DNA of 64,000 bases from Pseudovirgaria hyperparasitica (lineage: Eukaryota). Shown one piece after another: positions 55,840 to 59,815 of this stretch. The stretch lies in assembly GCA_010093815.1 (NCBI GenBank), contig ML996565.1; one strand, written 5' to 3'. Position 1 is the stretch's first letter, and each line of letters starts with the position of its first letter. The notes beneath the pieces are model-generated. The model searched no databases, had not been told where the DNA came from, and saw only the letters and a list, made by a program, of their open reading frames with translations. Position numbers and translations under genes: made by a program.

Positions 55840-57500
55840 TATCGTCTATACATGTGCTCGAAAACCTAGGTATAAGCTATAGTATTGTAACAATTTCTAG
55901 CTGAAATACTATGTAGAGTACTCTTTATATGTATTTATACTCCCTTTTCCCCCCTTAGTTCTTGGTCTATCGGTCGTGTCCTCAAGAGCACGCTCTAGAG
56001 AATGTATAACGCGCGTGTGATAGAACTACGGTTTTTTCTTTACGAAGGGTGTTGTCTAGGATGCAACTAAGCACCCGGCTTACATTCCAGAGATTACGCA
56101 GTGGATATCTACCAGCGTAGGTTCACAAGCTTTGAGTAAGTAACCCTTCTTGGGTGAATAGTGTTAGGAAGCTACAATTCGGTGACGCTTGTGATGTTGA
56201 GAAGTCCGACAAGGCAGTATTGGTAGATATACTAATTCTCTTTGTAAAGGAAAAATATAGCGAACAAAGGAATGTTAGGAAGCGAGGGGTTCAGCTAAGG
56301 TAATAATATTGGTTGCCAGTGAGTATATACAGCTCGATAGAGGCTAGATACTTCACTCTAAGGTAATGCCATAGTATGGGTCTTAGAATGGGACGTACCC
56401 CTTAGTATCTTTATCAACGGTATTAAACTTGATTATCGGTGTCTCCCTAGCTTGCTCAGCGGTATAGTGAGTTTGTCTTCGGTTGATATAATTGGTAGCT
56501 GATGTTATCGCACTGTCTGGATGACAGTACTAACTATTGAATGAAGTTGTTGTATTAGAGAAAGAGTTGAGTCTCTAGGAGACAGTTTAAGTACAAAGTG
56601 CTAAGTGCTAGCGTTCCATATGAGAGTAGTTCCTTCCACACTAACAGTACTTCTCGGCTGATGATGATATTGCGATATCTGCGACAATCAATCTTGACGT
56701 ACAATAATGATACTCAGCACGATCAACTAACATTCATGCGCCTGGACTAATCCTGGAGAACTCCAGCGGTGTTCATGTCCTTACGGCGCGATATTTGGTA
56801 GGACTTTCCAGCCAATGGGCTGCTGAGTCATGAATGGGCCAACCTACCTCTTAGGTAATAAAGGGACATTCAAATTCAGGACTTTGCATTCGGATCATGT
56901 ATCTTAGGCATCCGTACATGCGCGCGCATCTACTGTCCCGTCAACTCGCGGCCTCTGTGCCAGCATCATGCGAGGGTACCGACCCTTCATTGGCGATCAT
57001 GCCGTATCTCTACTGGCGCGGCGGATACGAATCCATGCAACCTCCATATGAAGCTGGAGTACGCCACTGATGCTCGTCAGGATTGAATGAAGGGAGGGGT
57101 AGTTTTTCGTGCCGCCGGGCTTGTCGCCTCTTTCACTGCATCAAGACTGGGCCGATCCCACCTTCCAAGGTTCCAAGGTTGTATTTACCAACAAAATTTC
57201 ACCCCAAACAAACCTTTGCCCCTGTTACTCGAAACCTTCACTTCATCTGCTGTGAGTATCTTAAACCCAAACCAACACCTCCTTGTCCCATCAAAACGTT
57301 ATATCCAACCAATTCGTTGACTGACAGGGGCGTGCATAGCTTTCCAGCCCCTCCCTCCCCGCCGCACATACACGTCACCCCCACTCGTCCTGCATTGTAC
57401 AGGCTAGACAGCTTATTTCACTCACCGCTTTTACCCTATAAATTCGTCAACGATCCTGAGAGCCCCTCAGTCTTCAGACACCTTCTCATACTCCCTCACA

Positions 57501-58740
57501 ATGTCTTACACAAAGAAAGCTGTGCACTTTGGTGGTGGTGCCATCGGACGTGGCTTCGTTGCCGAGTGAGAACCAACCAAGCTCATTACTTGTGGGAACA
57601 CCATTGACAAGATCGTTCAGGTTTTTACACAACTCCGGCTATGAAGTCACTTTCGTTGATGTCGACCGTAAACTCGTGGACAACCTCAACAAGATTCCAT
57701 CATATGTGATTACCGAAATTGGAGATGATGGCGAGAGGCAATTCACCATTGACCACTACAAAGCTCTCCATGGCATAGATGATTTCGCCACGGTTGTGAA
57801 AGCGATCGCCGAGGCTGATGTTGTCACCTGTGCTGTCGGGCCCACCATTCTGCCACGCATCTCGAAACCTGTGGCTGAGGCCATTGCAGTACGAGAACTC
57901 GATTACCCCCTCGCTGTCATTGCTTGCGAGAATGCTATCAACGCCACAGATAACTGGCGTGGGTTCATCGAAGGGCATGTAAAAGCAGAATATCTCAAGG
58001 ACGGAAAGATTCCATCGGACTCATCGAAGGCTCGCTTCGCCAACAGTGCCGTCGACCGCATTGTCCCCAAGCAACCTGAGGGCTTCGTCTTGGATGTTAA
58101 GATCGAGAAGTTTTATGAATGGTGCGTCGAGGAAGTGCCATTCGAGAACGGTGGAAAGAAACCCGAGATCAAGGGAGTCCACTTCGTCAAGGACCTACAA
58201 CCTTATATTGAGCGCAAGCTGTTCACCGTCAATACCTCTCATGCTACTGCTGCATACTATGGATACAACGCAGGTATTGGCCTCATCCATGAAGTCCTTG
58301 CCGACAAGAAGATCCATGATACCATTCGTGCAGTCGTGAAGGAGACCGCTCACCTGATCTCCAACAAGCACAAGATCGACACAAAGGAGCAGAACGACTA
58401 CGTTGAGGCTATCATCAAGCGGATATCCAACCCGGCTCTTGAGGACAAAGTTCTACGTGTCGGTCGTGCTCCTCTGCGTAAGCTGAGCCGAAAAGAGCGG
58501 TTTATTAACCCTGCTGCTCACCTTGTTGAGATGGGTGAGAAGGTTGACAACCTCCTCGGAGCCATCGAGATGGGTTTCCGCTTCCAGAATGTCGAGGATG
58601 ACGAGGAATCTGTCGAGCTAGCTAAGATCTTGAAGGAGAACAGCGCTGAAGATGTGGTCACCAAGGTCTGTGGACTCAAGAAGGATCATGGTCTATACCC
58701 TCAAGTCGTGGCGGTTGTCAAGAAAGTACAGGCCTCATAA
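57501..58740 (+). CDS. mpdA: Mannitol-1-phosphate 5-dehydrogenase (intron 57566-57620)
   Basis: KKAVHFGGGAIGRGFVAE, TCAVGP, IACEN, FANSAVDRIVP, PYIERKLFTVNTSHA, RVGRAPLRKLS..ERF. Confidence 0.95.
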
Positions 58741-59815
58741 AGGTCACGCCTTTGAGGATCTCATGCAGACGGTTAATGATCTGATAAACCCCAACCATAG
58801 ATGGTGGGATTGGTAGATCATTAGCTCTCGTGCCTTAGAACCATTTATATTATCTGCATAAATATCTGCTCGAACAAATCAATTCCTGTTGGCAGATGAA
58901 TGGCCAGAGTTTTTTTGACTCCCATCGTTTCTCTTCGTACGGAGCTGTGCCTTACCTTTGGCTTCATTACAAGCACTTTCATGACTTATTGCTTACACTG
59001 CTTCTTCCTCCTACGTCCCGTCGGATCCCTAGCATTCTAATATCATTATGTCCAATATAGTCTCACATAGCCTATTTTTCTTGAAGGATACAATTTGGCA
59101 CGGCTTCCAGAGAGCTTTTACGGCTTTCCGTATGAAAATACACCCATGACCATCGAATTGGAGCAAGTAACAGGTAGTCAAAAACATCTGGAAGCGATCC
59201 CAGAATCCCCTGAGAGGAGGCATTCGTCTCACCACCGTTGGAAGAACTCCTGAGTGGTGTAATCTACTAAACGTACAATGCCATCCTCTGCAATCGTGAC
59301 AAGGCCTGCGTCTTTTGGATACTGTGTCCCTCAACGTCGTGCATCTTGTCTTCCGGTAAGAGCATGGCACAGCTCTGCCACGTGTAACAGTCTCTGTAGC
59401 ATACGTAGTACAACACGATGGGCATCTGTGAGCTGTCGATTGACTATTATTTAGATGGTTTGTATCGATTCTATCCCGTGTATCGCTGTTGATATGATTA
59501 TATAAGGCAAAGATGGTTTTCTTTTCTCGATTTACGAAGCTTTCTAATAATAGCCTGAACAAGCTTCTGCTATAGCTTGCTTGTACACACGTTGTAACCC
59601 TAGGGGTATATCAGTGCCGGATTTGTTCTAGGGGCTAGTATGAAGAGCGAAAGCGAGCGTAGAACTATAGAAGAGAGATCGAAATGCTACTAAACTACGT
59701 GTCGAGTCAAGGCATATAGATGTGAAAAGATCCTATTAAGGCTAACGCGAGGACCCCATAAAACAGTCCTGACCTCGCAGCAATGCGCCGATATCGTATA
59801 CACATATGTATAGCC

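Follow-up and report, generated by a model that had tools for sequence, protein, structure and literature searches.

The gene for mannitol-1-phosphate 5-dehydrogenase (Mpd) found in the window, i.e., the whole 64,000-nucleotide stretch of Pseudovirgaria hyperparasitica DNA analysed here (contig ML996565.1), is followed directly behind its stop codon by four in-frame codons that close in a peroxisomal PTS1 tripeptide. Judging from the sequence, it is marginally probable that this arrangement provides a working, low-level read-through isoform of the enzyme in peroxisomes. For the Mpd family, dual targeting appears well supported by sequence, while the evidence for the window gene itself is moderate, with the cases of the Aureobasidium-like fungi and of one orthologue with a terminal intron (L018) being stronger.

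The identity of the gene was assigned by a domain search, in which both PF01232 and PF08125 scored above their cut-offs, and by a search of the PDB, in which the nearest solved structures are the bacterial M1PDH 3h2z and 5jnm, with a much closer match to M1PDH (E 3e-56) than to mannitol 2-dehydrogenase (E 6e-09). The alignment with the M1PDH structure stops at the residues KK of the KKVQAS end, shortly ahead of the tail. The coding sequence starts with the ATG at 57501, encodes a product of 394 aa and is present in a single copy, with one match in the genome (G000), and the 55-nt intron is absent from the contigs of runs X1, X2 and X3, having been spliced out in all three. Named Mpd orthologues from the Dothideomycetes share 63-70% identity with the window protein, which stands on a long branch (0.71 versus a median of 0.096) in a quick tree where its placement is uncertain. 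The features of the gene and of its 3' region are collected in Table 1.

Table 1. Features of the Mpd gene and of the region behind its stop codon, in window positions.
Feature	Position	Strand	Basis
Mpd exon 1, from the ATG, with the glycine-rich beginning of the NAD-binding domain	57501..57565	+	same as start of P0001
GT..AG intron, 55 nt	57566..57620	+	skipped in X1, X2 and X3 contigs
Mpd exon 2, coding part, ending in KKVQAS and the stop TAA	57621..58740	+	translation, domains, structure match
First stop and its +4 base, TAA-A, a tight context	58738..58741	+	sequence; ranking from PMC4615788 (available portion)
Four-codon in-frame tail R-S-R-L	58741..58752	+	translation; SRL is a canonical PTS1 tripeptide
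Second stop TGA, which makes SRL C-terminal	58753..58755	+	sequence, translation
Predicted 3' UTR stem-loop, core stem about 58771-58826	58756..58842	+	folding, z -2.26

A public protein labelled Pseudovirgaria hyperparasitica (P0001, 291 aa) is identical to the window Mpd over its first 288 residues, and corresponds to Mpd minus a 77-nt GC..AG stretch (window 58419-58495), the loss of which puts the remainder out of frame and truncates the C-terminal domain. Given that a short direct repeat is common to both ends of this stretch, and that the joint is absent from the contigs, this public gene model is probably wrong.

The in-frame PTS1 that a preliminary description of this DNA had placed after the Mpd stop is present as described. 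Positions 58720-58755 read AAG AAA GTA CAG GCC TCA TAA AGG TCA CGC CTT TGA, which translates as KKVQAS*RSRL*, so that the in-frame extension ends, at the next stop, in a PTS1 tripeptide. Papers are cited here by their PMC numbers, and the statements made about them refer to the portions of each source that were available. The SRL end matches both the pattern published by Stiebler 2014 (PMC4207609) and the Histoplasma motif (PMC13343957).

The chance background of such tails was taken from the window together with 400 kb of G000 (464 kb in all), which were read in all six frames and contain 35,957 stop-to-stop segments. Canonical PTS1 ends, defined as [SAC][KRH][LM], close 112 of these segments (0.31%), the looser x[KR]L closes 385 (1.07%), and the wider pattern published by Stiebler 2014 (PMC4207609) closes 294 (0.82%). 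Behind the 147 ORFs of at least 250 codons, a canonical PTS1 was found once, this being Mpd itself, and the Stiebler pattern three times, Mpd included; the share of TAA among these long ORFs is 36/147. At the canonical rate, a genome of 10,000 genes, which is an assumed figure, would be expected to hold some 30 such tails by chance, and the single Mpd tail is therefore not decisive alone.

Given this, the RSRL codons may simply belong to a 3' UTR of the usual kind, in which two stops happen to stand in tandem, behind an enzyme that is cytosolic only, an explanation that is regarded as fairly unlikely. It is favoured by the background rate itself, by the two further long ORFs of the 147 that fit the Stiebler pattern, by the tight stop context and the want of any positional likeness to the orthologue tails, and by the frequent occurrence of tandem stops behind highly expressed genes (PMC4615788). 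On the other hand, the match falls on an enzyme whose orthologues possess PTS1-like tails that appear to be selected, which makes the Mpd tail more than a chance case. A rough estimate, built on assumed inputs (2/31 lineages with read-through tails, 0.3 canonical and 0.15 TAA, versus 0.31% x 36/147), would come to about 4 to 1 for a non-chance origin.

If the tail is used, the route to it must be considered, and here the caveat that a TAA-A stop would be read through at a low level stands, given that UAA leaks less than the other stops and A is a poor +4 base (PMC4615788); the leaky UGA-CU(A) context is not that of the window Mpd. Basal read-through amounts to 0.01-0.1% in mammalian cells, and UAA is decoded in yeast as Gln, Tyr or Lys (both from PMC4615788), while in Ustilago the replacement of UGA by UAA decreased read-through (PMC4207609). 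The tail lies within the mature transcript, as one X2 contig without the intron spans positions 57340 to beyond 59400; the run is not recorded as RNA, but the skipping of the intron implies a transcript origin. The same contig, of 3,666 bases, extends past 59400, far 3' of the Mpd stop, which may reflect a long 3' UTR or a merger with a neighbouring transcript.

Alternative splicing, which had also been put forward as a means of producing such isoforms, found no support in the window gene. The X2 and X3 contigs cross the stop without any joint and without altered letters of the kind left by editing, in so far as contigs, which drop rare forms, would retain them, while those of X1 do not extend to the 3' end. 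Splicing onto the AAG acceptor at 58740-58742 could draw on eight in-phase GT/GC donors within the last 400 nt, each of which would delete 41-124 residues, and the only intron near the stop that is supported by a branch point yields no PTS1; no intron giving an in-frame PTS1 with the enzyme undamaged was found for the window Mpd. The use of an AAG acceptor in the event predicted for the PGK gene of G000, and the terminal intron that switches the tail in L018, lend this route some plausibility, but the conversion of TAA into a sense codon by RNA editing takes two A-to-I edits, and neither splicing nor editing is considered anything other than highly improbable here. Given the harmful donors and the joint-free, unchanged contigs, ribosomal read-through of UAA-A remains as the route to the tail.

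The stem-loop predicted directly behind the second stop (z -2.3 to -2.5 overall) is equalled in stability by 4 of 200 shuffles, and is a weak candidate for a stimulator of this read-through. An equally strong fold occurs in 3 of 146 other post-stop stretches, and a similar one in 1 of 11 orthologue loci, with none at the GAPDH gene of G000. In Drosophila, structures are commoner after TAA/TAG read-through stops, as noted by Stiebler 2014 (PMC4207609).

The comparison with other fungi was based on a metagenome scan that returned 50 orthologue loci, 48 of which reach the stop (L031 and L044 end earlier). After the removal of seven loci identical around the stop and of four near-identical ones dropped by hand (L007, L017, L025 and L045), 37 distinct loci were retained, with L007 and L025 being taken back in for the test of codon conservation. 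Tails of the x[KR]L type were found in frame at 8 of the 37 loci, versus 0/37 and 0/36 in the other two frames, and the Stiebler pattern at 7/37, versus 1/37 and 0/36; a canonical [SAC][KRH][LM] read-through tail was found at none of the 37, and 28 present no signal. The eight positive loci form two clades in a quick tree, i.e., two independent events, and two events in approximately 31 lineages correspond to p 0.04 for x[KR]L and p 0.027 for the Stiebler pattern. The expectation that relatives would share a PTS1-like extension is borne out for Mpd as an enzyme family, in these two clades, with 28 loci lacking one.

The first clade comprises five Pleosporales loci, placed among proteins of Plenodomus, Ampelomyces, Paraphoma and the Phaeosphaeriaceae, in which TGA-AT is followed by six codons closing in GKL, VKL or EKL. 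Over the last six codons and the stop of six Pleosporales loci, the invariant columns number 5, 4 and 0 of 7 at codon positions 1, 2 and 3, respectively (p 0.007); the tail stop codon varies, with all three stops being used, and the 21 bases past it are without any gap-free invariant column. The second clade includes three Aureobasidium-like loci (L019, L024 and L027), matching A. melanogenum at 95%, which have TGA-CTA, a context known to be leaky, and a basic tail of 16-17 residues closing in ERL. Four Aureobasidium-like loci have 7, 7 and 1 invariant columns of 7 at the three codon positions (p 0.0001), and one carries an in-frame 3-nt insertion. Judging from the sequence, the post-stop tails of both clades are read-through tails under selection. 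No orthologue read-through clade uses TAA, and the window tail differs from the orthologue tails in both length and sequence, which means that it is not their conserved element. The nearest orthologues found are approximately 70% identical to the window Mpd.

These same patterns can be read in terms of a vestige, in which an ancestral leaky stop preceded a working tail and later became TAA, leaving the tail near silent and undecayed. The gain and loss of signals is frequent in this family, with the 28 loci without a signal, one locus (L002) that lies inside the clade with Pleosporales-type tails and has TAG in place of TGA and no tail, and near-miss tails at L005 and L015, and the long branch of the window protein may mean relaxed constraint. 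On the other hand, the window tail has remained intact, no other canonical tail was seen in the family, the loss of function would have to be recent for 15 silent nt to persist in a lineage without close relatives, and the GAPDH of G000 keeps SKL behind a stop other than TGA. A vestige is considered unlikely overall. The near-miss tails consist of TRM followed by Tyr (L005), TRL followed by Glu (L015), and SSL followed by Gly and a stop (L043), all of which are possibly decayed signals.

Besides these read-through tails, a terminal intron of 71 nt is present at the locus L018, which gives an SSL end when retained and a DSK end when removed. Both products are present in the protein collection, where the whole of P0393 (388 aa) coincides exactly with the beginning of P0209 (396 aa, SSL). 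No canonical PTS1 product emerged when the remaining distinct orthologue loci were scanned for splice forms. A donor-like site near the end of L046 was discarded, given that no clear tail switch could be recognized there. At L026, a splice donor overlaps the Mpd stop, and the removal of the 58-nt intron alters the last residue only.

The C-terminal ends of the orthologue proteins were also surveyed. Leu is the last residue in 49 of the 119 closest orthologue proteins, as SSL (35), ASL (11), SAL, AAL or PSL (one each), while the 120 proteins nearest to an Aureobasidium query include three SKL, two SSL, one TKL and one PSL end, with the published PTS1 pattern at the end of six of them. The distant control, made up of 150 representatives at 50% identity, mostly about 30-45% identical and taken as largely bacterial, has three canonical tripeptide ends and no [SA][SA]L. 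The SKL ends of P0176, P0185 and P0186, which are proteins without names, were set aside, as 3/120 is not above the 3/150 of this control. The tripeptide SSL falls inside the Stiebler 2014 pattern, whereas EKL, ASL and QKL fall outside it (PMC4207609), and SSL, ASL, SAL, PSL and TKL are established PTS1 tripeptides of plants (PMC9542071). The SSL-type ends may be either fixed weak signals or the product of intron-retained gene models.

Enzymes known for cryptic PTS1 signals carry them in this same genome as well, as seen in the GAPDH, PGK and MDH of G000. In total, a peroxisomal signal was found in four of the eight other central-metabolism genes examined (GAPDH, PGK, MDH and GPD), and no PTS1 signal was found in TPI, a TPI-like gene, RPE and the other MDH. 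For example, GAPDH (L052, G000:C13), which is a known read-through target in fungi (PMC3798809), has a TAG-G stop followed by a 14-residue in-frame tail closing in SKL, and no 3' structure was found there; this indicates that a tail in G000 makes use of a stop outside the TGA-CT type. An alternative 49-nt intron that uses an AAG acceptor and leads to ARL is predicted for PGK (L053), and a choice between two 3' splice sites, of which the one lying 4 nt further on would lead to QKL, for MDH (L100, G000:C12), while GPD (L101, G000:C10) has an overt ASL end in a glycine-rich tail. The 3' region of this GPD gene holds an array of a 10-nt unit. A Pex13 gene was also found in G000.

In the TPI gene (L056, G000:C1), TGA-ATA is followed by a 15-residue tail closing in SVL. 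The TGA-AT context, found behind 3 of the 147 long ORFs, is common to this gene and to the Pleosporales Mpd loci L004, L006, L008, L009 and L011, and is possibly a second read-through context. The TPI-like gene (L054, G000:C1:2117034-2117759) lies approximately 16 kb before the window, and its match is stop-free and has no PTS1.

Mpd catalyses the NADH-dependent reduction of fructose-6-phosphate to mannitol-1-phosphate, and the mannitol metabolism of fungi has been treated as cytosolic, with its purpose under debate. In the mechanism proposed here, most of the product would be cytosolic, and a few ribosomes, probably no more than 0.1%, would insert an amino acid at the UAA (Gln, Tyr or Lys, if as in yeast) and add RSRL. 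The SRL-ended protein would then be bound by Pex5 and enter the peroxisomes, where the conversion of fructose-6-phosphate and NADH into mannitol-1-phosphate would regenerate the NAD+ needed for beta-oxidation. The pair of sugar phosphates would act as a redox shuttle in addition to those based on malate and glycerol-3-phosphate. Other Dothideomycetes would meet the same demand on this enzyme by reading through TGA-CTA or TGA-AT, by retaining a terminal intron, or with a weak end of the SSL type.

The amounts involved may be small. A read-through of about 1% gives the peroxisomes a cytosol-like enzyme concentration, because they make up 1-2% of the cell (PMC4207609), and at 0.1% the peroxisomal Mpd would reach roughly one tenth of its cytosolic concentration. 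Peroxisomes need NADH-dependent dehydrogenases for their NAD+, and GAPDH, GPD and MDH overlap there in fungi, with the NADH dehydrogenases being typical dual-located enzymes (PMC9549241). The peroxisomal membrane bars molecules larger than about 600 Da (PMC9265785), and both sugar phosphates are smaller than this. Mpd is not enriched in the Histoplasma peroxisome lists in the available part of the supplements of PMC13343957, from which GAPDH and PGK are absent too.

The wider proposal is a tentative one, which is regarded as possible rather than probable. It holds that the Dothideomycetes have an undescribed peroxisomal NADH shuttle based on fructose-6-phosphate and mannitol-1-phosphate, to which Mpd is targeted by at least four interchangeable devices, namely TGA-CTA read-through, TGA-AT read-through in a context that the published motif does not cover, retention of a terminal intron, and a weak overt end, with the UAA-A stop of the window gene possibly being aided by the stem-loop. 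If this is true, the mannitol pathway would gain a compartmental redox role, in which a peroxisomal pool of Mpd ties mannitol metabolism to NAD+ regeneration for the breakdown of fatty acids, the cell would have an additional redox shuttle, and the phenotypes of mpd deletions would be read differently. Mpd would also join the list of cryptically targeted enzymes, and the conserved TGA-AT tails suggest a read-through context that lies outside the TGA-CT screens.

Peroxisomal isoforms of fungal enzymes derived from read-through were reportedly described by Freitag in 2012. In the literature searched, no paper on a peroxisomal Mpd and no description of a fructose-6-phosphate/mannitol-1-phosphate peroxisomal shuttle was found, and the supplements of Freitag 2012 and Notzel 2016 may list Mpd. 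The word "mannitol" is absent from the available portions of PMC4207609 and its supplements, PMC9549241, PMC3798809, PMC9133605, PMC7491326 and PMC13343957, and the supplements are also without "mpd". The device itself, a cryptic PTS1, is known, and Mpd as its carrier is new within the literature searched.

The closest parallels are the fungal read-through forms of PGK, TPI, GAPDH, Rpe1 and Art1 (PMC3798809; Stiebler 2014, PMC4207609), in which an in-frame PTS1 likewise lies between two stops. These isoforms also belong to cytosolic enzymes of the central metabolism, for each of which the mechanism varies by species, but they have a TGA-CT core motif, whereas the window Mpd has TAA-A and is known from its sequence alone (PMC4207609, PMC3798809). 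In mammals, LDHBx and MDH1x are likewise NAD-dependent dehydrogenases with a low-level read-through PTS1, for which peroxisomal NAD+ regeneration has been proposed (PMC4207609, PMC4359377); they differ from Mpd in having UGA-CUA and deep conservation, in contrast with its tight stop and patchy distribution.

A further parallel is the alternative splicing of MDH in Aspergillus fumigatus, Yarrowia and Lipomyces, in which the choice of a terminal intron switches on the PTS1 of a redox enzyme (PMC7491326). This layout matches that of the MDH of G000 and of the Mpd orthologue L018, while the window Mpd is without a usable terminal intron. Finally, the Gpd1 and Mdh3 shuttles of yeast (PMC9549241) offer the nearest likeness as a model, given that a small, phosphorylated substrate pair there exports reducing equivalents, in the manner that is proposed here for the two sugar phosphates of Mpd.
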